Positions 23,643 through 47,042 of a stretch of 64,000 nucleotides of DNA are shown one piece after another. Below the pieces are notes generated by a model, which saw only the letters and a list, made by a program, of their open reading frames with translations, made no database searches and was not told the origin of the DNA. The DNA comes from a virus, in the IMG/VR virus record IMGVR_UViG_3300020731_000015, positions 11,271-75,270 of that record; one strand, written 5' to 3'. A program made the translations under genes and the position numbers. The stretch's first letter is position 1; every line of letters starts with the position of its first letter.

Positions 23643-23806
23643 TGAAGCGAATTATGTTTATCAGTCCTAAGTTTGCTAAGAAGCGCAAAAGCGTATTGCG
23701 AGTTCAATCACCACTCAAGGCCGCTAGGCGACCACGCTCTAACTAAACAGAGATTTGGAAAGAGTGGGGTAAAGTAATGAACGAACTAACCACAAGGGAG
23801 TCGGCC

Positions 23807-25681
23807 GTGTCACAAGTGAGCATCTTTGATGTAGTTGCTGATGTCGCTTTGGGCGACATTATTAAGAACCAGAACCTAAACGCAGATGTGCGTGAGGGTG
23901 CTGCCGACCTCTTACGAGAGGGCTACCTCACCGCAGATGTTATGGCTGTTTCTAAGGGCGAGGGCGAAATGTCCGTTGTTCTTATTCCCAACGAGGAAGT
24001 CAAAGACGAGTCGCCAATTTGGAAAAAGTTGGCTGGCAAGGTATTTGGCGAAACCGAACTTTCGGCTGGTGCTGAACAGCGTTTGATTTCTCGCAATATC
24101 GCTAAGGGCTTGGCTTCCGTGTCACACCCCTTTGTTAAGAGCGCCAATGCCTTTGGCGGCGTTCACGCTTGCGTAGTCTGTGGCTCAACCGCCGAGACTG
24201 ATGTATGTGAGCCGCTAGACAAGGCCGTAGGCTTCCCATTCTCCTTTGCCCCTAGCCCCGTAGAGCCAACTGCTGATATGAACGATGATGGCGCGGTCCA
24301 AGTCCAACTCGACCCACAGACAGTTGCCTCAATTATCGGTGCGGTTCAGACTCCCGACAACACCGATAACTCATCAAGCGAGAGCGAGAGTTCATCTTCA
24401 TCAAGTAGCAGTAGTAGTTCCTCATCATCTTCTAGTAGCAGCGACTCCACCGAGGAATCATCTTCCTCAAGCAGTTCCTCTTCCTCATCATCAAGCAGTA
24501 GCAGTAGCGACAGCGAATACTCAAGTGCTGATGACTCATCAAGTAGTTCCTCTAGTTCGAGTAGTTCCTCATCTTCCTCAAGTTCGAGCAGTTCGTCTTC
24601 TTCGTCTAGCGATGATGCGATTCTTGGCGACAGTTGGAAAGACGGCCTTGACCCTTGGCAGGTAGAACTTGCTGAAAGCCTTGACGAAATCGTTGAGGAT
24701 ATCGGTCGTATCCCTACTACCGAGGCTAACTACACCGACGTCTCTCCATACCAAGCATCCGGCCAGAACTGTAAGAACTGTATTGCTTACGATGGCGGTT
24801 GTGACTGGGTAGCCGTTCAGCCAGCCGAGGGCGGATGGTGCAAGTTCAATATTGTTCCAGTCCTTATCAAGTCTTCTGCTGAAACCGAAGCCTTTATGAA
24901 GAACCCATCGGTTTCCAAAGTAGAGAGTATGGCTTACGGCGACTTGCCAGAGGACTCAAGCGATTCAGAAGACGAATCCTCAAACCCTTTTGGAATGAGC
25001 ATTAACGCCGATGGCACTTACGGCGCGCCCATTACCGACCCCAACTCTGCCCCTAGCCGTGACTCACTCGCTAGTGGCCCGATGCTGAAATCGCAGCCAA
25101 GTTCGGGCTCGGTTCACGTTGACTCAACTTCTTGGAACGGCAAATACGAGCCAGAGATGCCAGAGAATATGACTATTCTTGACGAGCAGATGCCAGAGCC
25201 ACTCAACGAGTTTGGTGAAGTCGCAGAAGACGAAGACGACAGTATTCCCGGCACTATCCGTAAGGATGCCGACCTGCGCTACACGCTCGGCCCTTGGTAT
25301 GTTCCATACTCATCAGATGCACACGGCGAATGGACCGACCCATCAGAACTTCAGCAAGCCCTTTGGGGTTATGTCCGTTCAGGCGACCGTGATATCCGAC
25401 TCCAACACAATGTAGATATCGTTGCTGGTGAGTGGGTAGAGGCTATGACTTGGCCTTACGAAGTGACCTTGCCAATGGTTCAGGCCGGGACTGGTGCTGT
25501 TTCCAATACTAAGTTCCCCGCTGGAACCGTTTTCCTCGGCGTTCTTTGGAAGCCTTGGGCTTGGGAATTGGTGAAGCAAGGAAAGATTGGTGGCTACTCA
25601 ATGGGTGGCACAGGCGCGGGCGTAGAAGTTGATATGCCAGCCCCAACCGATATTCCGACTTTCCCTGCTGTTAACAACTAA
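23807..25681 (+). CDS. XkdF-like prohead protease with an N-terminal poly-Ser tract and a HiPIP-like Cys domain
   Basis: C-terminal YTLGPWYVP...DAHGEW...LQH...GEWVE...PAGT...WELVKQGKIGGYSMGG; AAGGGAG RBS before GTG 23807. Confidence 0.8.
   Translation: MSQVSIFDVVADVALGDIIKNQNLNADVREGAADLLREGYLTADVMAVSKGEGEMSVVLIPNEEVKDESPIWKKLAGKVFGETELSAGAEQRLISRNIAKGLASVSHPFVKSANAFGGVHACVVCGSTAETDVCEPLDKAVGFPFSFAPSPVEPTADMNDDGAVQVQLDPQTVASIIGAVQTPDNTDNSSSESESSSSSSSSSSSSSSSSSSDSTEESSSSSSSSSSSSSSSSSDSEYSSADDSSSSSSSSSSSSSSSSSSSSSSSSSDDAILGDSWKDGLDPWQVELAESLDEIVEDIGRIPTTEANYTDVSPYQASGQNCKNCIAYDGGCDWVAVQPAEGGWCKFNIVPVLIKSSAETEAFMKNPSVSKVESMAYGDLPEDSSDSEDESSNPFGMSINADGTYGAPITDPNSAPSRDSLASGPMLKSQPSSGSVHVDSTSWNGKYEPEMPENMTILDEQMPEPLNEFGEVAEDEDDSIPGTIRKDADLRYTLGPWYVPYSSDAHGEWTDPSELQQALWGYVRSGDRDIRLQHNVDIVAGEWVEAMTWPYEVTLPMVQAGTGAVSNTKFPAGTVFLGVLWKPWAWELVKQGKIGGYSMGGTGAGVEVDMPAPTDIPTFPAVNN
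24372..24610 (+). repeat. Poly-serine low-complexity tract
   Basis: Three long Ser runs encoded by mixed TCN and AGY codons. Confidence 0.9.
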
Positions 25682-25757: not shown

Positions 25758-28073
25758 GTGTCAGAAAACATCTTCTCGCAGATTGAGTCTTGGATTCGCA
25801 TCGTTAAAGATGCCAACGAGTCGCTCGCAACGGTTATGCGACACGACCAAGACCACGACAATTGGCACAGAATGCACGGTGACGCACCTTGCACTTCAGA
25901 GGCAGACTGCGCAGCAAAGCGCGCCAAATACGCAGAGGTGAAAGACGAGCAGGCAGTCACTAAGGGAGACTTGCCGGGCCACGAGTTCCACGGGAACCAG
26001 TACGAGGCTGGAGAGGGCGGTGGTGGAAATCTCACCCCCTCTGGGCACCGTCCGTTGAACGAGATTGCTCGTGACATCGAAAAGGTTTGGAATGCGAACA
26101 GCAAGAATGGCGTTCACTATACCGCCAAACCATACCTAGACGCACTAAAGCAACTCCACGACATCAAAGACAACTATATGTTTGACAGTGCCAAGAGCGT
26201 TGTCAACTACTTGCTCTCCAATATGGGAACTTTCCGTGGTGAAGGCGCCCCCGAATTAAAAAACGAATTAAAAGCACTGGTCAAACAATACACCGCAGGT
26301 AGTGGTGGCGGGAAGACCGCTCAAATCACTAGTGACTCAAAAACCAAGCCGACCGCAAGCGGCCCAGCAGCAAACCTCGCTAGGACTCACACGAGTATCA
26401 ACAACGCACTAAAGGCTGCGGTATCAGCAAACGGCGACCTCAAAGACTTGATTAGTACTTCTAAGTCATCAAAGACACGGGGCTACTACGGAACCGTTGG
26501 TGATGACGACCTTATGTGGGGAACACACCTAGACCTCAAGGACGCCCACGAAAAGTTGGCCGCCTTGCACACACGCGCCGCAACACAGGCAACCAAAGTT
26601 GGCGACACGGAACTAGCAAACGCTCATATTCAGGCGGCCAATGCTCACCGTTTGGCTGCTGAAACGGCAAACGACCGCCGTAATCGTGGTGGCGACACCA
26701 CCCCTAGCCAAGCAGAAGTCAAGGAAGCGCAAGACACCGCTAGAAAGAGCGCTCGTGCTATTTCGGCCTCGCAGAAAATCCTAGATGGCTCGAAGACCGC
26801 TCAAATCACCAGCGATTCGCAAACTAGAAGCGGAACATCCAATGTAAAGTTTGGACCATCTGAAACAAGCAAGATGCGTAGCGAGGCTGCTCGCCTTTCC
26901 AACCAAGTTCTTCACAAAGAAGACGCAGAGACAGATGCGCACGTTGCTCACATCGAACTCGCTAATAGCCACGCTAACGCCGCTAGGAGTGCTAGGGAAG
27001 ATGGGCTAAACAAATTAGCCAACGCTCACCAGAACGCTGCGAACGCTCACGCTAATGCTGCTGTTGCCACTACTTTGGGTGGCGACAACTACCCCAAACT
27101 CGCTCAAGCCGCTGGTGTTGCGACTGCTAAGGCCGACAACATCAACTACGAGCGCCCTATCAATGACGGAATTGCTGGTGGCATTATCGCTAGTGACTCG
27201 CAGACCAAGCCAAGCACAAGTGGCTTGGCTGACCGTGCTAACGACTTGGCAGAAAACGCCGAGCGAATGGAGCCAGAAGAGGTCGCCCAAGAACACGATG
27301 AAATCGCACAGGGCCACAAGGATGCCGCTAGCGATGCTAAGGCGGCCCTAGACACTTTTAAGGCAGAAAACGAAAAGAATCCAGTTGTTTCAGCAGACAA
27401 GCACATCGCTGACCTGCAAAACGAGATTGACGCACACAAGCAAGCGGCCGAAGAGCACGAAATGGCCGCCGATAGCCAAAGAGCCTCTGCGGGAAATAAC
27501 TATGAATATCAAGAAGCCGCTCAAGGTGCTACTGACTCGGCTGCTGATGCTTCGGTTAGGGCCACTAAAGCATCGGATATTGCTAGTGGAACTATTACTA
27601 AGGCCGACCAAATGGGCCACGAGTTCCGAGGCAACCAATATTCACAAGGACAAGGTGGCGGTTCAGCACCAGCGCGCCGTGTAGATGAGGGTCGTTGGAA
27701 TCCCGGCGACTGGAATCCCGGCGACCACCCGGTTTTGCCACTACACCCCGACTTCCCCGAACACCGAGTAGGAAGCCCATTCCAAACTAATCAGTGGGAG
27801 CCGCCAATACACAGAACGCCGGATGCGCCCTACACCACTAGGCCAACTATTTCACCAGACGGCCATCAAGAACCCGAAGCAGGCAATCCTTTCCGCTCTA
27901 ACCAATGGCACCCAGATGGAACTCGCCTACACGGAATGCCAGAAATCACACAACCAGAACAAGGGCCATCTACTCATCAAGAGGGTGGCGTGGGAAACCG
28001 ATTCAACCCCACTAGCCCAAGCAAAGTTCTAGATTACTTGCGCTCCAAGTATAGAGCCCGTGACAATGGCTAA
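25758..28073 (+). CDS. Tagged cargo protein 1 (two GHxFxGNQ tags, His/Ala helical repeats)
   Basis: GGAGG RBS before GTG 25758; leader FSQIESWIRIVK; tags at 25962 and 27600. Confidence 0.8.
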   Translation: MSENIFSQIESWIRIVKDANESLATVMRHDQDHDNWHRMHGDAPCTSEADCAAKRAKYAEVKDEQAVTKGDLPGHEFHGNQYEAGEGGGGNLTPSGHRPLNEIARDIEKVWNANSKNGVHYTAKPYLDALKQLHDIKDNYMFDSAKSVVNYLLSNMGTFRGEGAPELKNELKALVKQYTAGSGGGKTAQITSDSKTKPTASGPAANLARTHTSINNALKAAVSANGDLKDLISTSKSSKTRGYYGTVGDDDLMWGTHLDLKDAHEKLAALHTRAATQATKVGDTELANAHIQAANAHRLAAETANDRRNRGGDTTPSQAEVKEAQDTARKSARAISASQKILDGSKTAQITSDSQTRSGTSNVKFGPSETSKMRSEAARLSNQVLHKEDAETDAHVAHIELANSHANAARSAREDGLNKLANAHQNAANAHANAAVATTLGGDNYPKLAQAAGVATAKADNINYERPINDGIAGGIIASDSQTKPSTSGLADRANDLAENAERMEPEEVAQEHDEIAQGHKDAASDAKAALDTFKAENEKNPVVSADKHIADLQNEIDAHKQAAEEHEMAADSQRASAGNNYEYQEAAQGATDSAADASVRATKASDIASGTITKADQMGHEFRGNQYSQGQGGGSAPARRVDEGRWNPGDWNPGDHPVLPLHPDFPEHRVGSPFQTNQWEPPIHRTPDAPYTTRPTISPDGHQEPEAGNPFRSNQWHPDGTRLHGMPEITQPEQGPSTHQEGGVGNRFNPTSPSKVLDYLRSKYRARDNG

Positions 28074-29217
28074 TGACTTCTTTGCTGAAATAGAGGCGTG
28101 GGTTCGTATTGCTAAGGCAAAGCCCGACTACACCGAGTTGATTTCAGACCGCAAAGGCGAGCCTGACAACCAGAAGTTATACGACCAAGTAAAGGCCGAT
28201 GCCCAGAAGAAGTTTGATGTCTATCCATCAGCAGTGGCAAACGGCTGGGTCGTTCAGGAATACAAGCGTCGTGGCGGAACATACTCCAAGCCAGTAGCCA
28301 AAGGCGACTTACCGGGTCACGAGTTTCGAGGAAACCAATATGCGTCGGCTGGCGGAACGGCACAAATCACTAGCGAATCACAGACCGCACCACTAAACGC
28401 TGCTAGTGCTGCGAAAGACCTCGCTACTAAGGCAAACGACCTTTACGAGAAGAACCAGATTGACAAGTTCGACAAGACTATGCCCGCTAGTGTCGCTTCC
28501 AAGATTGGAAAAGACCATTGGGATATGGCTATCGAACACCAAAAAGAAGCAGAGCGTTTGTCAAACGAAGACGAGACTCACCTCAACTCTGAAATCGGTC
28601 ACGCCGACGCTTCTGATGAGCACTACAACGCCGCTAAACGGTGGGGCGTAGTTGCCGATATGCTGAATGGCACATACGGCCCAAGTCAACTCAATGTTGA
28701 TAGCGCTATCGCTGCGGCCAAAGAAGCATCTGGCTCTGCTACTGATGCCTCTTCTAACATTATCCCAGAAGCGGCTCACGAAGACACTATTGCTCAAAAC
28801 GGCGGTCCAAATGTCGCTAAGCCACTATACGGTTTTAGTGTCAAAAACGCAGGAAACATCAAGAGCGATGTCGAGGCGAGTTATATCGCTTCTGCCCTCC
28901 ACGAACACCTAGTAATAGGTGCTGGACACCCAGACGACACAGAAGTTCGCACCCCAGCGGATTACAAAGTGGGTGCGAGTCAGCACTATCAGTTGGCCCA
29001 GTATTACGCAGGGAAAGCACAAAGCGGCCCACAGAAAGCCGAATACCAAAAGGCTGCTGATGCTCACATTGCTGCGTATAAAGCCTGTGAAAAAGCGGCT
29101 AGTGCTGGAACGAAAGAGCCATCAAAGGCAAGCGTGGCTGCCGTTGCTGACACAGCGAGGGTTGCCGATAGGGCATCGTTTAATCTGGGCGAAACCTATA
29201 TGAACAATAGAAAGTAA
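28066..29217 (+). CDS. Tagged cargo protein 2 (DUF5872-like domain, His/Ala repeats)
   Basis: Leader FFAEIEAWVRIAK; LYDQVK...YPSA...VQEYKRRGGTY; tag at 28300. Confidence 0.8.
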   Translation: MANDFFAEIEAWVRIAKAKPDYTELISDRKGEPDNQKLYDQVKADAQKKFDVYPSAVANGWVVQEYKRRGGTYSKPVAKGDLPGHEFRGNQYASAGGTAQITSESQTAPLNAASAAKDLATKANDLYEKNQIDKFDKTMPASVASKIGKDHWDMAIEHQKEAERLSNEDETHLNSEIGHADASDEHYNAAKRWGVVADMLNGTYGPSQLNVDSAIAAAKEASGSATDASSNIIPEAAHEDTIAQNGGPNVAKPLYGFSVKNAGNIKSDVEASYIASALHEHLVIGAGHPDDTEVRTPADYKVGASQHYQLAQYYAGKAQSGPQKAEYQKAADAHIAAYKACEKAASAGTKEPSKASVAAVADTARVADRASFNLGETYMNNRK

Positions 29218-29221
29218 AACA

Positions 29222-30571
29222 ATGGCTAGGGATTTCTTTGCTGAAGTAGAATCGTGGATTCGTGTTGCCAAGGGCGATGTGGTTGGCCACGAGTTTCACG
29301 GGAACCAGTATCAGTCGGCTAGCGAAACGACACAAATCACTAGTGAATCGCAGACTAGCCCCGCTAGCCGTGCTTCGGAAATCGCTGCTAGGGCTAACGC
29401 ACTAGTTGATGGTATCTGGCACGACCCGGGTTCACCAGTATTACGAGATGAACACTCTGAAATAGCAGATGAACACTTTGCGGAAGCCAATAGAGTTCGT
29501 TCTACCAACCCAGCGTTGGCTGACGCCCACGTAGAGGCCGGCAACGCTCACGAGGATGCCCACAACGCTCACTCAATGGCACACACTTACATTAGTGATG
29601 AGAACGATGACCGTGCTGAAGCCGCAACTAGTAGGGCTATTCGGGCTAGTAGGAATGTCGAAGCACTAGCCAACGGAACTGCCACCGCCCCAAGTGCTAC
29701 TCCAACACCTACCCCAAACCCCAATAAGTTCTCGCACCCTTATCAGACTCAATACAGCGCGCCAAACTACCTAGCGCAAGCGGCCAAGAATGTTGCTGAT
29801 AGGCATCTAGATGTTGCGGTCGCTGGCGATAAGCCAGAAGACCTAAACGCCCTTGCTGACGAGCACCAAAAAATTGCCGAGGGTCTTCGTGATGTCGCTG
29901 ACCAGAAAGCGATTGCTGCTAGAACTGCCCAGACACAGGCGGCATCATTGGGCCGCCAAGACCCTGATGAGGGTGAGAAACTCGGAACCGGGCGTGAAGC
30001 AACGGAACGACCAGCCAACGTGACTGCTGAATCATTAGCCGACAAGTATTCCCCAGCAGGCGCATCGAACTCGGATGCGAACCGTAATCGGATTGCCGGT
30101 ATGACTTCTAGCCGTTTGGAAGACCTAAAGTTGGCCTCAAACTCGATGTCCAAACTTGCTGATATGAGTCACGGCTACGCATCTAGCCGAGTTCGTGGCG
30201 AATTGGGAAGTATCCGAGAGGCTATCCAAAGCCGAATCACAGACCTCAAGAACGAGGCAAAGGCCGGTGGCTCTAAGTTCGTTCAGGGTCAAGGAAACCA
30301 GCCAACTCGCACTTCTGCTGATTACAAGAACCTGATTTCCAAACTAACTAGTGCTTCTAAGTCCGTTTCTGAACTACGCAACGCTATTCGTAGCACGAAT
30401 CTCCAAAGCACGAACCACTACTACCACTCTGGTCAATTTGCCAAAGATGCCCCAGCCGTAGCCGATAAGGTGGCGGACGCTACACAGGCCTACAACGATT
30501 TCTATCGTGGAACTGATGGCAAGGATACGGGCTACTTCGCAAATGACCGATTTAAGAAGTCGGTTGGCTGA
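29222..30571 (+). CDS. Tagged cargo protein 3 (His/Ala helical repeats)
   Basis: MARDFFAEVESWIRVAKGDVVGHEFHGNQY. Confidence 0.8.
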   Translation: MARDFFAEVESWIRVAKGDVVGHEFHGNQYQSASETTQITSESQTSPASRASEIAARANALVDGIWHDPGSPVLRDEHSEIADEHFAEANRVRSTNPALADAHVEAGNAHEDAHNAHSMAHTYISDENDDRAEAATSRAIRASRNVEALANGTATAPSATPTPTPNPNKFSHPYQTQYSAPNYLAQAAKNVADRHLDVAVAGDKPEDLNALADEHQKIAEGLRDVADQKAIAARTAQTQAASLGRQDPDEGEKLGTGREATERPANVTAESLADKYSPAGASNSDANRNRIAGMTSSRLEDLKLASNSMSKLADMSHGYASSRVRGELGSIREAIQSRITDLKNEAKAGGSKFVQGQGNQPTRTSADYKNLISKLTSASKSVSELRNAIRSTNLQSTNHYYHSGQFAKDAPAVADKVADATQAYNDFYRGTDGKDTGYFANDRFKKSVG

Positions 30572-30601
30572 AAAATCACAACCCTGTGAAAGAATAGAAC
30601 T

Positions 30602-31822
30602 ATGGAAAACTTTGCTGCTGAAATCGAATCTTGGGTCCGAATCGCTAAGGGCGGGCCGGGCTCGGGAGATACCCCCGGTCACGAGTTCAATGGAAACCAA
30701 TACACCGACGCGAGTGGTGCTATCGCGGGCATTTCCAAACTTCGTGGGCTTTCAGGAGAACTCAAGTCAATAGTTGATGAACTAAATGGCAAGTTTTACC
30801 CACAGGGATTTACGCTGCGAGCCAAACCAGCAGATAAGTACGACAAAGACAGAATGTATGGGGAAAACTCATATAGTTCTTTTGCGCGCTATGTCACCCC
30901 AGAGAAACTAAAAGAAACACAGAGCAAACTTGAGGGGTTGGCCGACCAAGTGGATTCTCTAGTTGCTGGAGTTCGCCGTTCAGCAGCCGTTCACTCGGAC
31001 ACATCACCCACGATAGACAAGTTTGGTGGAGGCGAGTGGAAACTCGGACAAGACGAAGTTGGTAAGCACTTTTTAGAAGCCTCTAAGTCGCTTGAGGCTT
31101 TATCAGACAACTTGCGTGGTGCGGCATCCATAATGAGCCACTCGGCAAACAAGGCGGTTTCAGTCAAATCACCTCGCCCAATGGCGGATGATGGCTATCC
31201 TGCTTTCGGCTCTTCCGAACCAAAAGCCTTTGACGCCGTTAAAGGCGAGGATGTTCTATCAACGAAGTTGGCGATTTCACGCTATTCGGGTCACGAAAGC
31301 AGTTTGGGAGAACAAGTTGATGCGATTTCCAAACTCTTTGACAAGTCGGAACTATCGCTTTCTCGTGCGGCTATCGCTATAGCGAAAGACCCCTCAAAAG
31401 AACCTAACGAGGCAAAGGCCGCTTCTGATTCAGCCAAGTTCGAGTCGAAGTCAAAGGAGTACACTGCTTCTGCTGATGCTATGGAAAAAGACATTGAGGC
31501 TAAGTACGATATGGTCAAAAAAGACTATGACCTCGATGAAGACGGTAGGCCTATTCGTTATGGCCCCCAACACTCGGAAGAACTAGATGAATACGAAGAG
31601 GCAAAAGACAAGCAAGATGTCGTTCTCTCACGCGCCAAAGTAGCGGCGGTATCGGCTAGTAATGCCTACTCTGTAATGGCTCACTTTGCTTCGCAGCGTG
31701 GCGACACCGAAGCCGCCAAGCAAGCGCAAGAAAAAGCCAGCGAAATGCTGAAAGTGGCGCGCTATAGCGAATCTCGCTGGCCAGATGCGGTCAATCATTA
31801 CGATGACTACGATGGCGAATAA
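30602..31822 (+). CDS. Tagged cargo protein 4
   Basis: MENFAAEIESWVRIAKGGPGSGDTPGHEFNGNQY. Confidence 0.8.
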   Translation: MENFAAEIESWVRIAKGGPGSGDTPGHEFNGNQYTDASGAIAGISKLRGLSGELKSIVDELNGKFYPQGFTLRAKPADKYDKDRMYGENSYSSFARYVTPEKLKETQSKLEGLADQVDSLVAGVRRSAAVHSDTSPTIDKFGGGEWKLGQDEVGKHFLEASKSLEALSDNLRGAASIMSHSANKAVSVKSPRPMADDGYPAFGSSEPKAFDAVKGEDVLSTKLAISRYSGHESSLGEQVDAISKLFDKSELSLSRAAIAIAKDPSKEPNEAKAASDSAKFESKSKEYTASADAMEKDIEAKYDMVKKDYDLDEDGRPIRYGPQHSEELDEYEEAKDKQDVVLSRAKVAAVSASNAYSVMAHFASQRGDTEAAKQAQEKASEMLKVARYSESRWPDAVNHYDDYDGE

Positions 31823-31828
31823 CAACAA

Positions 31829-34126
31829 ATGTCATCTATCCAAGATGTCCGAAAGTTCCTTGTTAGAGAACGGTTTGTGGTCCTCAAGGGCGACTATGTT
31901 GGCCACCCCTTTCGTGGAAACCAATACTCCGACTTAGGCTCTGCTGAACACCTACAAGAAGCGAATAGAGCCGCTAGAGAAACGGATTCGCTCAAAAGAG
32001 AGGGCCGTCGTAGGTATGGTCGTTCTCACGGATATTCCCTTGATGGCGACCTAGCAAAAGCATCGCTCGATGCCCTTGACCACGCGGCATCAGCAAAAGC
32101 CAAAGTAGGCGTTCTTAAAACAACAATATCTGAACTAGAAGAAAAGATTAAGAGAAACGGTGGCGACCCCAAAACTCCGATAGACGGATTCCACGACTCC
32201 GTTGAGGTGCGACAACTCAAAGACAACTTACAGCGTTCCCAAGAACAGTTAAGCCATATAACTAGCGGGAATATGAAGTTTCGTATTTCTTGGAACAAAT
32301 CACTAACTAGCGAGCAAATGAGCAAGCAGGCCGCATCCGCGCTGAATCGTGGATACAAGGAAGTTCTCAACAAATTATCTTCGATGCCCGGCGTGACTAT
32401 GCCGAAAGCCAAGTCGCTTCTTGACAACAAGAACAACCCTCGCCCAGAGGCTCTAAAGGTTCTTCAGAACGATGTCAAGCAGATAGACTCAATCGCCAAG
32501 AAAGATGCCAAAACAGCGCAAGACGAAAGTGCGAGCCCAGAAGATAGGTATAACGCAACTGTCGGCTTGCGAAACTCATCGAAGAACGCCCTCTCTGCCC
32601 ACACCTTTCTTGAGCAAGTCTATCGGATTAGTGGAGACACTACTAACCAAGATGCTGAAGCAAAAATCGTTGAGAAAGCAAAAGCGTCTATTGGGAAAGC
32701 GGACGAACATTACACAAATAATTTCGCTCAAATAACACTTTCATACGCCAAAGAGAGCATCGATAAGGCTAGTAAGACGATTGACCTAAGTGGAGTCAAC
32801 CTATTCAGCATCAGCCCGGAACAGAAACAAACGATTTCCGATGCAAAAAGTCTTTACTCGAACGCCTACAGAATACTTAGTGATGCCAGACTAGGCAATA
32901 CTGATGAGGCTAGGTTGGCAAGAGACAATTCTCAACAAGCAAACGCACTCCTAAATACCGCTAGGTCTAACGAACTAAAAGCAACCCTAGACGGGTCAAT
33001 GAAGAACATAGGTAAGGCAACTGCTGATAAGAGCGCCTATGAGAACACCCAAAAGGCCGAGCGCGATTATCGCACTTTCCAATCGGCGGTTGGCGAGGCT
33101 AAGTCGAATTGGAACGGCCTATTATCTAACTACGGTGGTGCTTCATCACCAGAGTTAAATGCAAAAGCACAGAGCAACGCTATCGGATTAGCGAACCAAC
33201 TAGAACTCGTACAAAAGACCGCTGGTTTGGCTATCGGTAAGGAATACCTAAAAACGGCTAGTGACTCCCTAAAGTTCGTTCGTGAAAACCTCGGAAACAC
33301 AGACCCAGCCGTGGCGGAAAAGGCCGACAAACTTATTACCGAAGCATCAAGTGCAGCCAATACAGCAAGAGGGCTATTCTCAAAAGAATCTCGCTACTAT
33401 TCATCAAGCGCACCAGCGACAAGTGGTTTGGAAAACGAGTGGAATCAGGCATCTAGGTTTGAGAAAGAATGCACCGCCTACTCCAATGCTGTTCGTGGAA
33501 CATCTCTTTTGGAAAAAGGTCTAGCGGAAACAAGGAGTATGCCCGAAAAGGTGGATATGAGTGACATCGGCCAAGATGACCCCAATAGTTATGTATCCCT
33601 AAAGGCTAAAGCCGCGGGAACTTTGGATGACTCGTTCGGCTACCTAACGCGCGGAGTTGAAGCAATCGACAAATCAGACCTTTTCAGCAAAGACGAAAAA
33701 CAAGAACTTATTGGCAAACTTAAGGACCAAGCCACCCAAGCGGGTAAGGAACTTGCCGATATCAACTTTAAGTTCTATAGAGATGGTCTTGACTCTATGG
33801 TTGTCAACGGTAGTAAGGAATTGGAAAAATCCAAAGACACCGATGACGATAACCCTATGTATGCCTCTACTAAGGCAGAAAAACTATTGGTGCAGGCTAC
33901 CTATCTTGCTGATTCTATAGAAAACAGTATCGCTCACAAGGAACTTAGTGGTTCGCTACTAGTTGGTCACTTCCAAGACAAGACCCCGCTACAACTCAAT
34001 TCCGAGCAAGTAAAGCAACTCAAGGAAACCCTCGCCAAGCATAGTGTTGCTGAAATCCAGCAAAAAGCCGATGAAGCGAAGCAGGGCCAGCGCGCTTTCT
34101 ATCGCCTACGCCAATACGCCCTGTAA
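31829..34126 (+). CDS. Tagged cargo protein 5 (long alpha-helical protein)
   Basis: VVLKGDYVGHPFRGNQY at 31886. Confidence 0.8.
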   Translation: MSSIQDVRKFLVRERFVVLKGDYVGHPFRGNQYSDLGSAEHLQEANRAARETDSLKREGRRRYGRSHGYSLDGDLAKASLDALDHAASAKAKVGVLKTTISELEEKIKRNGGDPKTPIDGFHDSVEVRQLKDNLQRSQEQLSHITSGNMKFRISWNKSLTSEQMSKQAASALNRGYKEVLNKLSSMPGVTMPKAKSLLDNKNNPRPEALKVLQNDVKQIDSIAKKDAKTAQDESASPEDRYNATVGLRNSSKNALSAHTFLEQVYRISGDTTNQDAEAKIVEKAKASIGKADEHYTNNFAQITLSYAKESIDKASKTIDLSGVNLFSISPEQKQTISDAKSLYSNAYRILSDARLGNTDEARLARDNSQQANALLNTARSNELKATLDGSMKNIGKATADKSAYENTQKAERDYRTFQSAVGEAKSNWNGLLSNYGGASSPELNAKAQSNAIGLANQLELVQKTAGLAIGKEYLKTASDSLKFVRENLGNTDPAVAEKADKLITEASSAANTARGLFSKESRYYSSSAPATSGLENEWNQASRFEKECTAYSNAVRGTSLLEKGLAETRSMPEKVDMSDIGQDDPNSYVSLKAKAAGTLDDSFGYLTRGVEAIDKSDLFSKDEKQELIGKLKDQATQAGKELADINFKFYRDGLDSMVVNGSKELEKSKDTDDDNPMYASTKAEKLLVQATYLADSIENSIAHKELSGSLLVGHFQDKTPLQLNSEQVKQLKETLAKHSVAEIQQKADEAKQGQRAFYRLRQYAL

Positions 34127-34174
34127 TTTATCAACTGTGGTCTATTATCTATAACGAACGCAAGGGAGTTGCCT

Positions 34175-35596
34175 ATGTCTGATGAAATCCTCAACGCCGC
34201 ATCCGAATGGATTGGCTCTGTGAACAAGGGTCTTTACGGCGCACTCTTTAACGAGTCGCTCACCTTTGGTCAGGACAATGCCGCTAAGGCCGAGTCACTC
34301 TACGCAGTTGCCCTCACTGCTGAAATGGCTGGCGACAAGGCTAAGGCGACTAACGCCCTTATGACTGCTTCGCAACTCCACCTCACTTCTGCCGACTACT
34401 ACTTACGCGCCTCTTCTTACGGAACGATTGAGCGCACCCAACTACTCGCCCTCTCACAAGAACAAAATGCACTCGCACAAAAGGCGATTGAGGCCGTTCA
34501 TCTTCTTGAGAACACTCCTGCTGAATCAACTACCGATGCTGGTCTTGATGGCGTGACCGTTGATGAGGCCGACACTTACCCTATTGATACTGCGAACAAC
34601 CTAGATGCCCGTGACCACGCACCCGACCTGCCAGATATGTATAAGTCAGTTGGCGGGTTTGCTGAAATCGCAGAAGACGGCGTAGAGGTTTGGAACTTCG
34701 ACATCGCAAAGGGTGACACACCCGGCCACGAGTTCCGTGGAAATCAATACACCGAGGGAACTGGAAAACTATCTGGCCGTGCTGATGATGTTGCCGATAG
34801 AGCAAATGACGAGGGTGCTAGCAAGTCAATCGCTGCGGAACACAAGAGCATCGCTGAAGGACACAAGAGTATCGCTATGGAACTCGCTGACCAAGCAGCC
34901 GAAATGCCACTAACGCAAGCGGAAAAACCACTTGTGGCAAAAGCCGCTATTGACAACTTCAAGGCTTTTATTGCTCACGCTAACGCCGCAGACGCACACG
35001 AAGAAGCGGCAAAAGCACTTGCGAACGACCCACACTCGGAGAGTGCGCTAGATGCTGAGGAAGCAGCACAGCGCACTAGCGATGATGCCGCAACTGCGAG
35101 CGCCGAGGCTCACGGGGGAACCTCGATTGCGGCCAATGCTGAAAAGGTTGCCCCAACAAGCACTAGTGGCACGACTACCCAAATCACTAGCGAGGCTCGT
35201 AGCAACCCCTCAAGCGTTAAGTACATCAAGCCAGTCAACCTTACGGCCGCTAACACCTTGCGTGAAAGGGCCGCAAGTCTCGCTTTGGAAACAGGGCGCA
35301 CCGTGCCAAACCAAGCCTTCGTGCAAGAACACACTCAAATCGCTAAGGAACACACGAAACTTGCAAAGGCAAATGACAAGGCTGGAAATAGCGATATTGC
35401 CGAGGCCCACCGAGATGCCGCTCACGCACACGAGGTTGCCGCTGCTTTTACTAAGGATGCTATTGGGGTTTCACCAGACGGAACCGACCAAAAGGCTATT
35501 GATGCCGAGCAGAAGAGCCAAGAGGCCTTTACCGCTAGTGGTGAGGCCGCTCGTCTTGAGAGAGCCAATATTTTCCCCGACACTAGTTCTTACTGA
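34175..35596 (+). CDS. Tagged cargo protein 6 (His/Ala helical repeats)
   Basis: IAKGDTPGHEFRGNQY at 34709. Confidence 0.8.
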   Translation: MSDEILNAASEWIGSVNKGLYGALFNESLTFGQDNAAKAESLYAVALTAEMAGDKAKATNALMTASQLHLTSADYYLRASSYGTIERTQLLALSQEQNALAQKAIEAVHLLENTPAESTTDAGLDGVTVDEADTYPIDTANNLDARDHAPDLPDMYKSVGGFAEIAEDGVEVWNFDIAKGDTPGHEFRGNQYTEGTGKLSGRADDVADRANDEGASKSIAAEHKSIAEGHKSIAMELADQAAEMPLTQAEKPLVAKAAIDNFKAFIAHANAADAHEEAAKALANDPHSESALDAEEAAQRTSDDAATASAEAHGGTSIAANAEKVAPTSTSGTTTQITSEARSNPSSVKYIKPVNLTAANTLRERAASLALETGRTVPNQAFVQEHTQIAKEHTKLAKANDKAGNSDIAEAHRDAAHAHEVAAAFTKDAIGVSPDGTDQKAIDAEQKSQEAFTASGEAARLERANIFPDTSSY

Positions 35597-35609
35597 TACT
35601 AGAAAATCC

Positions 35610-35822
35610 GTGCGAAACCCCTTTGAGATAGAGGAACTCCTAAAATCCCCGCTTTACAAGCAGGTAGTTGACGGAGTGGTGAAACAGCCTCGCTATGTGC
35701 CTTTGGCCGAGCAACGCAAACACCCACAGGATTTCGGCTGGCTAGATGATGCCGTGCCAGATAACTATGTATTCCCAGAGGAAGACTCCGAAGACCCTAT
35801 GGGCGAATCACCTCTAGGGTAG
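35610..35822 (+). CDS. 70-aa hypothetical protein (3' end of track ORF 35052-35822)
   Basis: GTG 35610 follows the preceding stop; VRNPFEIEELLKSP... Confidence 0.5.
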   Translation: MRNPFEIEELLKSPLYKQVVDGVVKQPRYVPLAEQRKHPQDFGWLDDAVPDNYVFPEEDSEDPMGESPLG

Positions 35823-35886
35823 GTAAGCAATAGCGATTTGGAAATCGTAGTGTAGCCTTTCTCGTAGAGCGAAAGGAACTCCTTTT

Positions 35887-37878
35887 ATGAATATTGGCGA
35901 CCGATTCAAGCCGGTTTACACCCCACGCAACCAAGCATCTATTGATGCCGAGATTGCCAGCAAGCAGATTGCTAAGACTGCTCGTAGTGAGGTTGAGGCT
36001 ATGTCAGCACTAGACAACGCTAACTTCCGTCTTCGTAAGGCTACAGAGTCTTTGAGCGAAGCACAGGTGGCTTACTTTGCCGCCGTTGAGAAGTCAGCAA
36101 GCAACGCTACTGAACTCCGTGCTGCCTACAACAACGCACTTGCCGGATTCCGTGACAGCGAGAAAATCGCCGCTGTCGCTGCTGATGAGGTTCGCAAGGC
36201 TAAGGCCGCTCTCGCAGGTCTTCGCAAGAAGGCTTCTATGGAAGATGACTATGAGGATGACTCATCAGACGATGACTCATCAGAGTACGATGAGGATGAG
36301 AAGAAGAAGTCTTTTGGTGGCTCTAGCGACCAAGAAGATGCTGCTGATGCTATGGCTGGCGATGACCCAGAGGGCGCAGTAAAGGTTCTTGACTCACTTG
36401 CCGACACCCACGAGCGCCTCGCAGGTATGGCTCGTAAGACTGGCAATATGGATGCTCACTCGGCTCACGCTGCTGAAGCCGGTCGCATTCGCTCAAAGAT
36501 TGTTTCTCTTCGTGGCAAGGCCAACAACAAGGAAGTTGTAAAGTCTGCTTCAGATTTCATCACTAAGCGTGAGTTCTCTGACACCAAGCGCGCTCAACTC
36601 GCTGATTTGCTTGAAGACTGGAAAGTTTCTAAGGCTGCAATGTTGATTGTTTGCCCATCTTGTATGGGTGACGGTGGCTCGTGCTGTGAAAACGGAATGA
36701 TTAGCCCCGATGACCTTTCAGACCACGTTCAGTTGGCAGACGAGATGCCAGTTGCTATGAGTGCTTTCAGCACCTCTTCGCTTCTGACCCGTGACTTCCA
36801 AAAGTCGGCCGCTTACCAAGAGTATGTCTTGGCTAAGGGTGATGTTGATGGTCACGAGTTCCACGGAAACCAGTACACCGCAGGTGGTGGCGGAAAGACT
36901 GCTCAAGTCGCTAGCAACTCGCAGACCGCACCAAAGACCGATGCCGAGCGTTTGGGTAATGTCCCGGGCGCTAGCAAGGCACTACTCACTCAAGATGCGA
37001 TAGACAAGTTCCAAAGTGGCAAGATTGACCACAAGGCTTTGGCAAATGCTCACGATGCTCTTGCTGCTGCCCACCTTTCTGCCGCTAAAGAGGCACGGCT
37101 AGTTGGTGACAAGAAAGGTATCGCCCTCCACATCGCCGCCGCCAACGCTCACCTTTCTGCCGCTACTGCCCACCTAACTGCAGACGGAGAGGGCTACGAG
37201 CCCTATGTTGACAAAAACGGTAATGAGGTCAAGACCGAGGGTATGTCATACGGCGAACTAGCCAACTTGCCAACCGCTTCAGACCGACTTTCAGCAAACG
37301 CCGCTGATGCTTCTAAGGCCGCAGACAAGCACGATGTAGAGATGGAGCAGGAAACCGCTCAAATCACTAGCGAAGCCCGCACCGTTCCAATCAAGCCCGG
37401 CCAAGCCGCACAGACCCGTGACCCCAACTGGAACCCACGCACTAGTGGCGCGTTGATAAATATGCCAAAGGCGGGAACCCAAAAGGGTTTTAACACCATC
37501 GTTGGTGGCTACGAAAAGAACATTCCAGTTCAACTTGGACTCGCTAAGCAAGCAGAGGAAGAATCAAAGAAAGCCGTTGCTGATGGCGACCTTGAGACTG
37601 CCACTGCGAAGATGGAAGAGGCTGTGAAGGCTTATGAGGCCGCCGCCGGAAACGCTCGTGGAATCTTTATGATGCACGAGAAGTTCCAAGGTCAGGTCAA
37701 GCAGGCAAACCCTGAAGACCCAAAGGTAGCCGCTTTCCGTGAACAGGCTCGTTCTATTCGTGCTAACGAAAAGGCTTCGGCACAGGAAAAGGCTGCTGAA
37801 CTTGGAAAGAAGTTTAAGGAACAAGAGGCCGCCAAAATCGCCGCTGCTAAGGATGCCCAGAAAATCGTAGGCGAGTAA
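35887..37878 (+). CDS. Tagged cargo protein 7 (coiled coil, acidic linker, CxxC finger, His/Ala repeats)
   Basis: GAAAGGA RBS; VLAKGDVDGHEFHGNQY at 36835. Confidence 0.8.
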   Translation: MNIGDRFKPVYTPRNQASIDAEIASKQIAKTARSEVEAMSALDNANFRLRKATESLSEAQVAYFAAVEKSASNATELRAAYNNALAGFRDSEKIAAVAADEVRKAKAALAGLRKKASMEDDYEDDSSDDDSSEYDEDEKKKSFGGSSDQEDAADAMAGDDPEGAVKVLDSLADTHERLAGMARKTGNMDAHSAHAAEAGRIRSKIVSLRGKANNKEVVKSASDFITKREFSDTKRAQLADLLEDWKVSKAAMLIVCPSCMGDGGSCCENGMISPDDLSDHVQLADEMPVAMSAFSTSSLLTRDFQKSAAYQEYVLAKGDVDGHEFHGNQYTAGGGGKTAQVASNSQTAPKTDAERLGNVPGASKALLTQDAIDKFQSGKIDHKALANAHDALAAAHLSAAKEARLVGDKKGIALHIAAANAHLSAATAHLTADGEGYEPYVDKNGNEVKTEGMSYGELANLPTASDRLSANAADASKAADKHDVEMEQETAQITSEARTVPIKPGQAAQTRDPNWNPRTSGALINMPKAGTQKGFNTIVGGYEKNIPVQLGLAKQAEEESKKAVADGDLETATAKMEEAVKAYEAAAGNARGIFMMHEKFQGQVKQANPEDPKVAAFREQARSIRANEKASAQEKAAELGKKFKEQEAAKIAAAKDAQKIVGE

Positions 37879-37904
37879 GAGCCTTAGTGTTCTAAGGTTT
37901 ACTC

Positions 37905-40190
37905 GTGAACTACAAAGATATTCTCTCTATCCTTAAGGCTGGCGTTGCTGGTCAATCTGGTGATAAAGACGGTCACGACTTTCGTGGCAATCAATGGACT
38001 GTTATGGGCCCTTGGGGTCAACCAGTTCCACGACCCCGTGACCCAGCGACTAACAAGCCCCTAAAGGGCGCAGCGTTGGCTGCTGAATTGGCACGACTCT
38101 ATCCGAGCCCGAACACGCCTATTCCAAACGCCCCTAAAACGACTGCCAAACCAGCCCCACCAAAGGTATCTGGCTCGACCCCTAAATCACCAAAAGCCCC
38201 CAAAGCACCAAAGGCTACGCCAGCACTCGCACCAACCCCTACACCGGTCGCTACAACCCCTACAACGCCCCCTAAGCCCGTTGATGAAGCACCAAAGGCC
38301 GAAGCCCCAAAGGTAGAGGAAGTCAAGCCAGAAGAGCCTAAAAAGGTCGAGGATAACCGAGTTATCACGGAAGAGGGTCAGAAGTCTATTCAGGAACGAA
38401 TTGCCGATGCTGAAAAGTGGGAACCCAAAACTGATTTGGAAAAGCGGGCTTCCGAAGCCGCCTCGAAAATCGCCGCCGCAATCCTCGTTCCAAAAGAACG
38501 CCGACCCCTATTCGTAAAGAATCTCACTACGGTTCTCACCCAGCCAAAGGCTTTTAGAGATGCCGTTGCACAAGCCAAAACCGTAGAAGTCAACGACCGT
38601 GTTAGAGACAACGCAGCGATGCTGAAAATGATTGGCTTTACGGGTCTTCCAAAGGTCGTATCGGAAGCAGAGTTTAAGGCCACACCCGGCAAGGTCGCCT
38701 ACTCTGGTCTTTCGTACACTCGGAGTTCTACCCAAACACTTCAGCAGAAGTTAGCGACGCTTTACAACGGGGAGTTCCCACGCTACGGCGGTCCTATGTT
38801 CGGTGCGGCGTTCTACACATCCGAGAGCAAAGATGTGCCGGTTTCATACGCCCAAAAGAATGGGGCTAGTGGAACAAATACCTGTATCTTTCGCAACAAG
38901 TTAGTTGACCCCAACAATGTCTATAACGCATCTGGCAACGGCCCAATGATTAAATTGGATGTCTTATCAGCAACGGCTAGGGAAGACCACGGCAAGTATT
39001 CGGCTATGGACCACCCTGACTACAATCTCCGAGAAATTATGTCGGATGCTGGATACACCGATGACGAAATCAACCGAATTGATGGCAAGGGAAGCCAGCA
39101 AGGTATCTTTAGTGGAGACAACAACTGTAAGAGTATCGGCCCAGCCCTAGCGGGATACGATGCGCTGAAAGATACCCACCACAACTACACAATGGTTCTA
39201 AATCGTGGGGCTATGGTCCTACCTGACACCTACGCAACCAATATCCAACATCAAGGTTCGTTTGGGCCAGAGGGAGCAGCAAATGTGTCTGACAATGTTC
39301 CTGTGGATTCGGCTTACGCAATCTCCGTGCCTACGCCAAAAGCACCCGAAGATGATGAGCAAGATGTCGCTAAAGGTGAATCTGACGGACACCCTTATCG
39401 TGGCAACCAATATGGGCCGGGCAAGAGTGATGGCACTCCTGAAAAGCCAAAGCCACTACCCGGGTCTGAAGAAGAAACGGAAGAAGTAGTAAAGAAACTC
39501 ACCGAGGATATGAAGTTGCCTCCTGCTGTTATCCGTATGGGTATCCAAGTAGCCCGACCACTTCTCGCAGAAGCCGCTAAATACGAACCGGCTATCACCA
39601 AAGCGATTTCTCAATCCGTAAAAGAGAGTGGCGGAACTCGAAAGCGCGCTCAATCTGCCGTAAAGTCACTCTCTAGTGCTACCGAAAAGGCGGTTAGGGA
39701 TACCGCCGATTCTGTCCAAAAGGGCTTGACTGCTGAAATCACATCTAACTCCCTTTCCAAAGAAGCCGGAGAAATCCACGACCTCGTTCGCTATACGGTT
39801 ATCTGGCCACAAAAGGAAATAGCAAGCGGCGCGAACAAGATGATACAGAGCCTCGCCAATAAGGGCTTCGTTCCATACAAAGACGAGAACGGCACGGAGA
39901 TGGTGAAAAACTACTTCCACGATAGGCCGGGAAACTCATACCGAGGCATCAATGCCAACTTCGTTGACCCCAAGAGTGGAATGGTCTTTGAGGTTCAGTT
40001 CCACACACTCCAAAGCCTTGATACTGCTGAAAAGATGCACAAAATATATGACAGTATTCGCAAACTAGATAAGACCGACCCAGTTTACGAAAAGGGGCAG
40101 GAAAAGATGCGAGCGGGCTTCGCACAGGTAAAAATCCCACCGGGAATTGACTCGGTTGGAAATGTCTGGTTCAAGAAGGCTATAATTTAG
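37905..40190 (+). CDS. Tagged cargo protein 8: possible ART-like domain plus an Apk2/RelA-SpoT-like nucleotidyltransferase
   Basis: Tags at 37935 and 39372; IHDLVRYT, KNYF, YRGINANF, FEVQFHT, HKIY. Confidence 0.8.
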   Translation: MNYKDILSILKAGVAGQSGDKDGHDFRGNQWTVMGPWGQPVPRPRDPATNKPLKGAALAAELARLYPSPNTPIPNAPKTTAKPAPPKVSGSTPKSPKAPKAPKATPALAPTPTPVATTPTTPPKPVDEAPKAEAPKVEEVKPEEPKKVEDNRVITEEGQKSIQERIADAEKWEPKTDLEKRASEAASKIAAAILVPKERRPLFVKNLTTVLTQPKAFRDAVAQAKTVEVNDRVRDNAAMLKMIGFTGLPKVVSEAEFKATPGKVAYSGLSYTRSSTQTLQQKLATLYNGEFPRYGGPMFGAAFYTSESKDVPVSYAQKNGASGTNTCIFRNKLVDPNNVYNASGNGPMIKLDVLSATAREDHGKYSAMDHPDYNLREIMSDAGYTDDEINRIDGKGSQQGIFSGDNNCKSIGPALAGYDALKDTHHNYTMVLNRGAMVLPDTYATNIQHQGSFGPEGAANVSDNVPVDSAYAISVPTPKAPEDDEQDVAKGESDGHPYRGNQYGPGKSDGTPEKPKPLPGSEEETEEVVKKLTEDMKLPPAVIRMGIQVARPLLAEAAKYEPAITKAISQSVKESGGTRKRAQSAVKSLSSATEKAVRDTADSVQKGLTAEITSNSLSKEAGEIHDLVRYTVIWPQKEIASGANKMIQSLANKGFVPYKDENGTEMVKNYFHDRPGNSYRGINANFVDPKSGMVFEVQFHTLQSLDTAEKMHKIYDSIRKLDKTDPVYEKGQEKMRAGFAQVKIPPGIDSVGNVWFKKAII

Positions 40191-40192
40191 GT

Positions 40193-40408
40193 ATGGATTG
40201 GATTTACTACGAACGCCGATACAAAGACGGCTCTTTGGCCGCTGGGTATCGCTATGACAACGAGCATCGTGGTGAAATCCTTACGGCTAACGGCTGGCAA
40301 CACTCCGACAACTTCTTCCACAAACTAATCACGGGCGACAACGCCCTACGCCAATTAGAGGGAATCCCCGGTTGGGCCTATAACGAACAGGGAAACTTGA
40401 TTCAGTAG
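40193..40408 (+). CDS. Probable immunity protein (IapK-like) for the upstream toxin domain
   Basis: 71 aa, starts 2 nt after the toxin stop; WIYY...GWQHSDNFF..LITGD; carries no tag. Confidence 0.55.
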   Translation: MDWIYYERRYKDGSLAAGYRYDNEHRGEILTANGWQHSDNFFHKLITGDNALRQLEGIPGWAYNEQGNLIQ

Positions 40409-40446
40409 GGTAAAGTATCGGGAATCCTAGTTTGGAAAGGCCCGTT

Positions 40447-41334
40447 ATGACTTCGGACATCAATGCTGAAATCTTGGCGTGGGTCCGACTAGCAAAGGCT
40501 GGCGATACCAAAGGTCACGCTTTTCACGGCAATCAGTATCAAGAGGGCGAGAGTGGTGGCGAAGCCCCAGCCCGACAGGTAGATTCGAGTCGCTATCAGG
40601 CAAATGGTCGCTACGGAACTGCTGAAACCACCGAATCAATCAAGCCGACAGTTGCCGAAAAGCCAAAGCCCGCCGAACTTCCAAACCACGACACCCGCAT
40701 AAAGAGCGACCCAGCCGATACCTCTCCAAAAGGCATAAAGAATTGGGCTCGAGAAATCCACTTCGCGCTCACTCGTGGCGAGCAACCCATTATCTCCGCC
40801 CAGCACTTCCCCGCCTTGATTGCTGAAATGGCCCGAACGAACTCAAAGGGCAACGACATAACCAACATCCGTATTGACGGAACTCGCCTTATGGGATTAG
40901 ACGGAAAGGGCTACTCTCGCAGCAAAATGCCCCAAATTGACGAGAGCGAACGCCCCCAATTCCTAAAGGATATTGAGAAGTCAGACGGAATCACCGTAAA
41001 GCCAATGTCCGTTGACCCCACGACCCTAAAGCCAATCCAAAAGGAAATCAACGGCGACAAGTCTGGGGCGATTATGAAGAAGAACCCAGATGGTATTCCC
41101 GACAATATGCGAATCTTGGTTTCCAAAGATGGTTATGTAGTGGATGGACACCACACTTGGGCCGCTGCCGTTGCGCTGAAATTGGCAGGAAAGTCGGCTC
41201 AATTCCCGGTCTATCAACTCTCCTGTGACTGGAAGAAAGCGATGGATGTCGGCCTCGCTTGGGATAAGGAACACAATGTTCCCCTACAAGGATTTGATAC
41301 CAAGCCACCGGTTTTATCAAAATCCGTGAAATAA
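40447..41334 (+). CDS. Tagged cargo protein 9: ParB/Srx-like domain
   Basis: Leader INAEILAWVRLAK, tag at 40495; LKPIQKEI, ILVSKDGYVVDGHHTWAA. Confidence 0.8.
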   Translation: MTSDINAEILAWVRLAKAGDTKGHAFHGNQYQEGESGGEAPARQVDSSRYQANGRYGTAETTESIKPTVAEKPKPAELPNHDTRIKSDPADTSPKGIKNWAREIHFALTRGEQPIISAQHFPALIAEMARTNSKGNDITNIRIDGTRLMGLDGKGYSRSKMPQIDESERPQFLKDIEKSDGITVKPMSVDPTTLKPIQKEINGDKSGAIMKKNPDGIPDNMRILVSKDGYVVDGHHTWAAAVALKLAGKSAQFPVYQLSCDWKKAMDVGLAWDKEHNVPLQGFDTKPPVLSKSVK

Positions 41335-41341
41335 TAGGATT

Positions 41342-41749
41342 ATGACGAACGCATCAGATTTCAGCAGAGGCAATTTGCTTGGCCCAGATGGGGTTTATCG
41401 TGAGTTCATCAAGGGTGATTTCTCTGGCCACGTCTTTCGTGGCAACCAGCACTCGGTCGGTGGCGTAGGTCACTTCGACCCTTGGCGCGCAACCCTAATG
41501 ACTATCTGTGCTTCGGGCCACCAGAACACCATCGGCGTTCCCCCAACTTGGATTGAGCGTGATGCTCAAGGTAAGCCAACTGGTCAGTTCACGGCGGGAA
41601 CCCAGAGCCGTATGTGCGCTACTTGTTCCAAACCTCTACCTAACCGTTGGAAGTTGATAAACGGACAGAAGTTTATTCAGCCCGACAAGCAACCCGTGAC
41701 GAGCGCAAACCAATGGCTTTACGGTGGAGTAAAGAACTATGTCAAGTAG
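41342..41749 (+). CDS. Tagged cargo protein 10: Zn-ribbon protein
   Basis: FIKGDFSGHVFRGNQH; CASGH...CATC. Confidence 0.75.
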   Translation: MTNASDFSRGNLLGPDGVYREFIKGDFSGHVFRGNQHSVGGVGHFDPWRATLMTICASGHQNTIGVPPTWIERDAQGKPTGQFTAGTQSRMCATCSKPLPNRWKLINGQKFIQPDKQPVTSANQWLYGGVKNYVK

Positions 41750-46902: not shown

Positions 46903-46961
46903 GTCGAAAGTCGCTATAGTGGATGCCGAAAGGCGTTCCTTTCCAAATCATCAGTATCAGC

Positions 46962-46996: not shown

Positions 46997-47042
46997 GTTT
47001 ATTGGCTTGATTTGCCCCACCACATCAGTTATCATTAGTCCT

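Follow-up and report, generated by a model that had tools for sequence, protein, structure and literature searches.

In the IMG/VR virus contig IMGVR_UViG_3300020731_000015, nearly every protein encoded by a block of about 20 kb starts with one of a few short N-terminal leaders. Here we analyze the 3' 64 kb of this 75,270-base contig (64,000 nucleotides, positions 11,271 to 75,270; hereafter the window) and describe these leaders together with a second motif, a junction tag of the form K-G-[DE]-x-x-G-H-x-F-x-G-N-Q-[YW]. Based on the sequences and on analogy with better studied phages, we propose that the leader is most likely a capsid-loading propeptide that is removed after a Lys residue by the head protease, a reading to which we give about an even chance. 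The leader classes, the rule that governs their position, a leader swap, a lineage without the tag, and the test of the Lys motif are new here. All genes, leaders and tags placed in the window below lie on the + strand.

Class A leaders at the N-termini of free-standing proteins

Class A leaders follow the consensus M, 2–5 residues, then [DN]-x-E-I-x-x-W-[VIL]-x-hydrophobic-[AS]-K. They span positions 25758..25808 (cargo 1), 28066..28116 (cargo 2), 29222..29272 (cargo 3), 30602..30649 (cargo 4), 34175..34228, and 40447..40497 (a putatively ParB-like cargo). These six peptides, and the two of class B discussed below, are all present where the initial annotation had placed them. Translation probably starts at a GTG codon with GGAGG upstream at 25758, and at ATG codons in the other five. 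The six copies share a register in which Trp is residue 11–12 and the closing Lys is residue 16–18; the 17-residue leader of cargo 1, for example, has Trp 12 and Lys 17. The copy at 34175 had been called weaker, and rightly so: it keeps Trp 12 and Lys 18 and little else, and its orthology to canonical class A proteins, sought among relatives, was not confirmed. A seventh copy stands at the start of an open reading frame (ORF) near contig position 3062, before the window begins. Across the six frames of the contig, the pattern W[VIL]R[IVL].K has seven matches, six of which are cargo N-termini, against 0.37 expected from shuffling.

The same rule of position holds in relatives. Counts of classes A and B refer to a clade of 54 related loci whose portal proteins are at least about 72% identical. 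There, the strict class A pattern occurs in 34 distinct copies, every one at most 60 residues from the preceding stop codon, with no internal copy and none on the minus strand. In database proteins with class A, Trp is residue 11 in 24 of 36. These positions suggest that, in the clade, class A is confined to the N-termini of polypeptides that stand on their own. Class A is also under selection as a peptide and not as DNA, because about half of its identical residues differ in codon (50 of 104 same-residue codon pairs).

Class A is predicted to be an amphipathic helix that carries Trp at a fixed position. An AlphaFold2 model built from 17 aligned class A leader-plus-tag sequences shows a helix over residues 2–17 with a predicted local distance difference test score (pLDDT) of ~70, followed by the tag as an unstructured coil. 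The hydrophobic moment of the leaders, 0.4–0.62, is about twice that of shuffled versions. With a charged residue every 2–4 positions and a mean hydrophobicity of ~0.1, class A has neither an unbroken hydrophobic core of ~10–15 residues nor a twin arginine, and we rejected it as a Sec or Tat signal peptide.

Evidence that leader and tag are separate modules

The contig has 19 tags, all of them on the + strand. In 80 related viral loci gathered with the portal as query, there are 157 tags on the + strand and 1 on the minus strand. Counting distinct tags in the clade, those near an N-terminus follow class A in 22 cases, class B in 21 and neither in 6, whereas internal tags follow class B in 14 cases and neither in 49. 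True class A precedes at most one of 67 internal tags.

The initial annotation had noted an extra domain between leader and tag in cargo 1 and cargo 2 and had concluded that the two elements are separable; both the observation and the conclusion are borne out. In cargo 1 a conserved domain of ~50 residues lies between the leader and the tag at 25977-26000, and in cargo 2 the insert before the tag at 28315-28338 is DUF5872 (E 6.6e-9). The leader of cargo 3 is joined straight to KGD and the tag (29285-29308), that of cargo 4 is followed by GGPGSGD and then the tag (30677-30700), and the ParB-like cargo has its tag at 40513-40536. In the 34175 protein the first tag comes ~180 residues on, at 34724. 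Some proteins of relatives also begin with a canonical class A leader but lack the tag altogether. In one lineage (L059), KGGPGSG[RP]H replaces every GH.F.GNQ tag while class A and class B leaders are retained; since a Gly-rich stretch can take the place of the tag, the tag is probably not essential for the leaders' role.

Leaders can also be exchanged. One small payload domain, whose copies in other phages are 52–68% identical to that of the window, carries class A in the window, class B in another phage, and class A together with a zinc ribbon in still others. The joint of the swap falls directly after the invariant Lys. Portals of three kinds have a tag and payload fused to their C-terminus, inside the capsid, with no leader; because of this fusion, tagged modules can be placed inside capsids. 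Together, these sequence comparisons support the view that leader and tag are distinct modules and that orthologous payloads can exchange their leaders. In proteins of the 41342 family, no break separates the tag from the conserved core.

A tag profile run against 1.84 billion proteins returned 2225 cluster representatives at E <= 0.001, 507 of them at E <= 1e-10. All 119 matches of a tag search with annotated sources come from metagenomes or unnamed records. Across other lineages the tag stays constant, whereas the N-terminal peptides and the residue before G-D are lineage-specific. A literature search on the letters of the motif returned nothing relevant.

Payloads appear in new combinations as well. 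In the relative P0080, the leader and DUF5872 part of cargo 2 are joined to the C-terminal 340 residues of cargo 6 (34175), at 53% identity, which indicates that payloads are shuffled at junctions. A second peptide, (G)-[TK]-[TA]-Q-I-T-S-[DE]-[SA]-[QKR]-T-x-P, has eight strict matches, often ~10 residues past a tag (window positions 26322, 26802, 28363, 29333, 35180, 36904, 37360 and 39735). This repeat is limited to this phage and its closest relatives; the other tag proteins, 228,000 residues in all, have two matches, as many as chance would give. It thus does not belong to the general system, and we rejected TAQITS[DE]SQT as a general cut site.

Class B, class C and other N-termini

Class B leaders have the core (N)PF[ST]x[DE]xLL, followed by a variable stretch that continues as YP[IL]TK, P.W.KASEILK,.GQGIY.V.K or TRDFQKS..YQ.YI..K. 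On window evidence alone, which amounts to the two copies already reported, the class is weak. One of these heads a 135-residue zinc-ribbon-like cargo (41342..41413; 24 residues ending in FIK, with the tag at 41426-41449), and the other lies within the 35887 protein, at residues ~292–317 (36760..36837, with the tag at 36850-36873). Relatives supply ~21 N-terminal and 14 internal distinct copies. In the 35887 family the internal element is conserved throughout, behind an acidic linker, and an internal translation start ahead of it was rejected, as no conserved start codon or ribosome-binding site is found there. This conservation at internal junctions means that class B is more than another N-terminal leader. 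For the same reason, a docking or recognition motif beside a cut site is a likelier role for it than that of a pure N-terminal address.

Classes A and B are both real, and the number of classes exceeds the two that had been proposed. A shorter class C peptide, hydrophobic and ending in VLK, occupies 31829..31888 before the tag at 31901-31924; another, ending in ILK, occupies 37905..37937, where AGVAGQSGD comes next and the tag follows at 37971-37994. Class C also heads relatives of both proteins. The 35887 and 41739 families have conserved N-termini of their own.

Three further sequences touch on these classes. A small unlisted ORF of 70 residues with a GTG start (35610..35822) begins with a class B core, RNPFEIEELL, has no tag, and is conserved in the relative L012. 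The N-half of a C5 methylase (46923-47801), its catalytic half, ends, at 47700-47801, with VAK-GG, ten residues, NPFTSQDLL and a stop, which places a class B-like core at the C-terminus; this might serve to load a packaged methylase, or it might be chance. Polyproteins that begin with the kinase-like domain (window 41739-41800; P0011, P0127 and others in the database) are highly conserved at their extreme N-terminus, which reads M-(x)-F-Q-P-N-F-V-x-F-T-N-T-[DE]-I. This stretch might be one more kind of leader, with a distant resemblance to class B, or simply the strand with which the kinase-like domain opens.

A hydrophobic-x-Lys motif and the head protease

Every leader, whether of class A, B or C, closes with hydrophobic-x-Lys. 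The classic substrates of phage head proteases are scaffolds and protease precursors, and the motif is enriched in both. In the 265-residue scaffold-like protein (52250..53047), hydrophobic-x-K-[GASD] occurs 8 times, where residue shuffles give 1.3–1.4, so that 8 of its 15 lysines lie within the motif. The protease precursor has 7 occurrences against 2.0 expected from the same kind of shuffle. Portal, capsid, cement and non-head proteins show no enrichment, and the effect is specific to Lys, as Arg, Glu, Asp or Gln at the same position give no excess. The excess recurs in the scaffolds of two tagged relatives, one untagged relative and the cultured Arthrobacter phage Laroye; some of the scaffold sites are conserved in position and others have moved, while their number stays at 5–8. 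Because the motif is enriched in these classic substrates, we read hydrophobic-x-Lys as the probable cut site of the XkdF-like head protease of this lineage. The initial annotation had taken the leader for a cleavable address, and the motif lends indirect support to cleavage; these comparisons gave no support to its further suggestions, that the leader binds the scaffold or core and that the tag persists on the mature protein and acts in ejection or in DNA or metal binding. Literature on XkdF protease specificity was searched and yielded nothing usable.

The candidate enzyme is the XkdF-type (Peptidase_S78_2) domain at 25262..25618, the C-terminus of a 634-residue protein (23777-25681) whose gene adjoins that of the portal. 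This precursor has a long poly-Ser tract: at 24290-24640, between its N-terminal domain and a Cys-rich middle, more than 100 residues are nearly pure Ser with some Asp and Glu. In Laroye the XkdF-like stretch sits in gp18, which is annotated as an RNA ligase; gp17, annotated as the head maturation protease, looks MuF-like.

The scaffold N-terminus (52250-52370; 17524-17650 in Laroye, L089) has the block E-T-S-G-V-D-x-P-A-H-L-x-x-G-W, followed by the first hydrophobic-x-Lys site. We considered whether this N-terminus is a degenerate leader plus tag and rejected the idea, as the conserved motif is common to untagged phages, including Laroye. A VKGD sequence in the portal tail was likewise dropped as a conserved cut site, since it is not conserved in relatives.

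The head module and its cargo block

The leader-bearing genes lie within a recognizable head module. A portal gene of the Mu/P23-45 type (22029..23642) marks it, and is followed by the protease gene and then by eleven large ORFs (25746-45986, ~20 kb) that form the cargo block between the portal and protease genes and those for scaffold and capsid. DNA methylase genes and a Cas4-like nuclease gene come between the cargo ORFs and the scaffold gene, and a cement-like gene separates the latter from the lambda E-type capsid gene (53564-54565).

The eleven cargo ORFs have the tag motif in common. Few family matches were obtained for them: DUF5872, a MuF-like C-terminus (on the 37905 protein), phrog_2859, and weak ADP-ribosyltransferase (ART) and kinase-like matches. 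The ART and kinase-like matches are on the 41739 protein and fall below cutoff; an HExxH motif is visible in its sequence. The 40432 protein matches phrog_2859, a family of unknown function, and we read the matching domain as ParB-like. The putative ART, ParB-like, MuF-like and HExxH domains are typical payloads of phage-type polyvalent proteins, which likewise have several unrelated enzymatic domains in one polypeptide and a late/head-gene context. The capsid interior is the most likely destination of the proteins encoded at 25758-45986.

Portals of the tagged clade (window 23400-23642; L012-L059 and L072) share a C-terminal tail of ~90 residues that is rich in Gly, Gln, Asn and Ser, with the conserved blocks NPQGG.NDQSGGSG[IL]Q..I[ST]S.GY.G and NGPLTNNQG.TS; untagged relatives have no such tail. 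Within the capsid, this tail is a candidate for the partner of the cargo. Two portal ORFs (L059:5488-8220 and that of L054; 910 and 930 residues) contain an insert of ~370 residues that resembles an intein with a homing-endonuclease part. A Dps/ferritin-like gene (HWNV.G..F...H..FEE) without leader or tag is also present in many related cargo arrays (L016:15845, L021:16377, L024:16412, L072:8842 and others). With regard to the host, a scan of bacterial genomes gave a single contig of a metagenome-assembled genome. The nearest portals in the phage collection belong to Arthrobacter phages, which are without the tag.

A proposed mechanism and its alternatives

We propose that the leader brings a free-standing cargo polypeptide into the assembling procapsid, much as the capsid targeting sequence (CTS) of T4 and the first 30 residues of P1 DarB do for their cargo, and we infer that a partner for the leader would be present there. 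The XkdF-like head protease would then cut after Lys and free a peptide of 16–24 residues, so that the mature cargo would begin at G-D-x-x-G-H-x-F-x-G-N-Q. Modules that lie behind another module or behind the portal would ride in with their carrier; since they are carried in this way, fused modules would need no class A leader.

Several points weigh against this proposal. The enrichment of the Lys motif is circumstantial, as it was gauged by shuffling the residues of helical proteins that are homologous to one another. Other lineages with the tag can have Leu, Ala or Phe as well as Lys ahead of G-D, so that reading this position as a cut site has to assume a lineage-specific specificity of the protease. 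Class B, as described above, is conserved at an internal junction across the whole 35887 family, behind an acidic linker and with no conserved Met or ribosome-binding site before it. Confidence in the AlphaFold2 models is low to moderate for class A plus tag (mean pLDDT 63) and low for the 41342 family (8 sequences), in which leader and tag score below 40. The tag profile had no match in the Protein Data Bank, and a search of the phage collection for the array, for leader plus tag and for the polyprotein returned only small unrelated domains.

The first alternative to weigh is that the leaders serve only for recognition, either by the head protease or by the zinc-peptidase-like domain of the 41739 polyprotein, in whose active site they would position the junction, and that loading relies on another element, such as the tag or the payload. 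All leaders do close at the putative cut motif, class B is found at internal junctions where an address would be superfluous, and Iyer et al. (PMC5512222), in the passages of that paper returned by a term search, propose that polyvalent proteins are cut apart by peptidase domains. However, 49 internal Lys-Gly-tag junctions have neither an A nor a B element, so recognition of a junction does not need a leader. The confinement of class A to the N-termini of free-standing polypeptides and the portal fusions without leaders also speak against a role in recognition alone, which we consider unlikely.

A leader that stays on the mature protein and acts during or after ejection, for example by targeting the host membrane or by setting the order or direction of exit through the portal, would suit an amphipathic, Trp-containing helix at a fixed distance from a free N-terminus. 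We hold this to be distinctly unlikely. The payloads appear to be soluble enzymes of diverse types, every leader closes with the motif found in excess in scaffold and protease precursor, and classes B and C occupy the same position without sharing the amphipathic helix.

It is also conceivable, though in our judgment quite improbable, that leader and tag form a small folded or oligomerizing structural unit of the mature proteins, such as a helix that bundles cargo into an inner body. Several class A proteins are long, rich in Ala, Glu and Lys and probably helical, and the unbroken passage from tag to core in the 41342 family would fit such a unit. In the AlphaFold2 model, however, the helix stands alone, the tag is unstructured and the two do not pack against each other; leader and tag are also found apart, and inserts of 50–70 residues are tolerated between them.

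That the N-terminal stretches are DNA-level junctions favoring recombination of payload genes, as the shuffling of modules at joints might suggest (a 28066-like N-terminus with a 34175-like C-terminus in one relative, and the leader swaps), is hardly credible, being largely refuted by the codon analysis and further opposed by the hydrophobic periodicity and fixed Trp, which point to selection on the peptide, and by the lack of minus-strand motifs (tags in the contig, class A in the clade).

Returning to the proposal of a loading propeptide, a broader form of it, which we regard as rather unlikely, is that leaders and tag make up a two-part cargo code in a large group of uncultured phages: A, B and C would be interchangeable addresses that sort cargo to different procapsid partners or steps, and hydrophobic-x-Lys together with GH.F.GNQ would mark the cut. 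If such a code exists, sequence alone would suffice to pick out injected effectors among thousands of metagenomic proteins, and the loading of foreign proteins could be designed.

Proteins that are carried in the phage head and injected with the DNA are first-line weapons against host defenses and are hard to spot from sequence. If the leaders are indeed loading signals that end in a protease site, every leader-bearing protein of the clade becomes a predicted virion passenger, and the same logic would extend to the 2225 clusters with the junction tag. Our analysis also puts forward hydrophobic-x-Lys as a concrete specificity for head proteases of a so far unstudied family, one member of which is in a cultured Arthrobacter phage. 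Short, portable loading peptides could in addition be useful for packing foreign proteins into capsids, as has been the case with T4 and P1.

Comparison with known systems

Encapsulin cargo-loading peptides offer one likeness, in that a short linear peptide would address unrelated cargo into a shell of the HK97 fold. Encapsulin peptides are usually C-terminal and are not removed. We rejected this assignment, as the peptides described here are N-terminal, there is no encapsulin, and the shell gene is a lambda E-type phage capsid gene accompanied by portal and scaffold genes.

Polyvalent proteins come closer in their payloads. As far as the passages returned by a term search of PMC5512222 go, they include the same kinds of domain (ART, DdrB-like ParB, MuF, kinase-like and zinc peptidase-like) in the same late/head-gene context, and processing into units is proposed there too. 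A GNQ motif was not found by the term search, and leaders of this sort are not described in the passages that it returned. By comparison with what those passages present, many of the modules here are separate genes with an N-terminal leader of their own, and the proposed cutter is the head protease and not a peptidase domain.

In phage P1, an N-terminal stretch longer than 9 residues and no longer than 30 suffices to send the large anti-restriction protein DarB, or a reporter, into the capsid (PMC9024508). The cargo there is an injected enzyme of the polyvalent type, the same type that we propose here. The P1 signal is known from one protein, whereas the leaders form a family of paralogs; no cleavage motif or following tag is described for P1, and no sequence relation of its signal to the leaders was found.

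Phage T4 provides the closest parallel in function. Its head protease, gp21, cuts at L/I-x-E sites. The T4 CTS is an N-terminal peptide of the internal proteins IPI–III and Alt, which are packed into the head and delivered with the DNA, and it is removed at a consensus site of the head protease (PMC3012670). Like the CTS, class A is a short N-terminal peptide common to otherwise unrelated proteins encoded in the head module of one phage. The differences are several. The protease is of the XkdF/S78_2 type and not gp21, and the proposed site is hydrophobic-x-Lys instead of L/I-x-Glu. Several interchangeable leader classes coexist here, and a second, widespread junction motif, GH.F.GNQ, follows them. 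The leaders are not known to share a motif with the CTS, and the loading of cargo is here a prediction from sequence. Because the leaders have no known sequence relation to the T4 signal and the proteases belong to different families, we suggest that the leaders are a functional analogue of the T4 CTS and not a member of that system.

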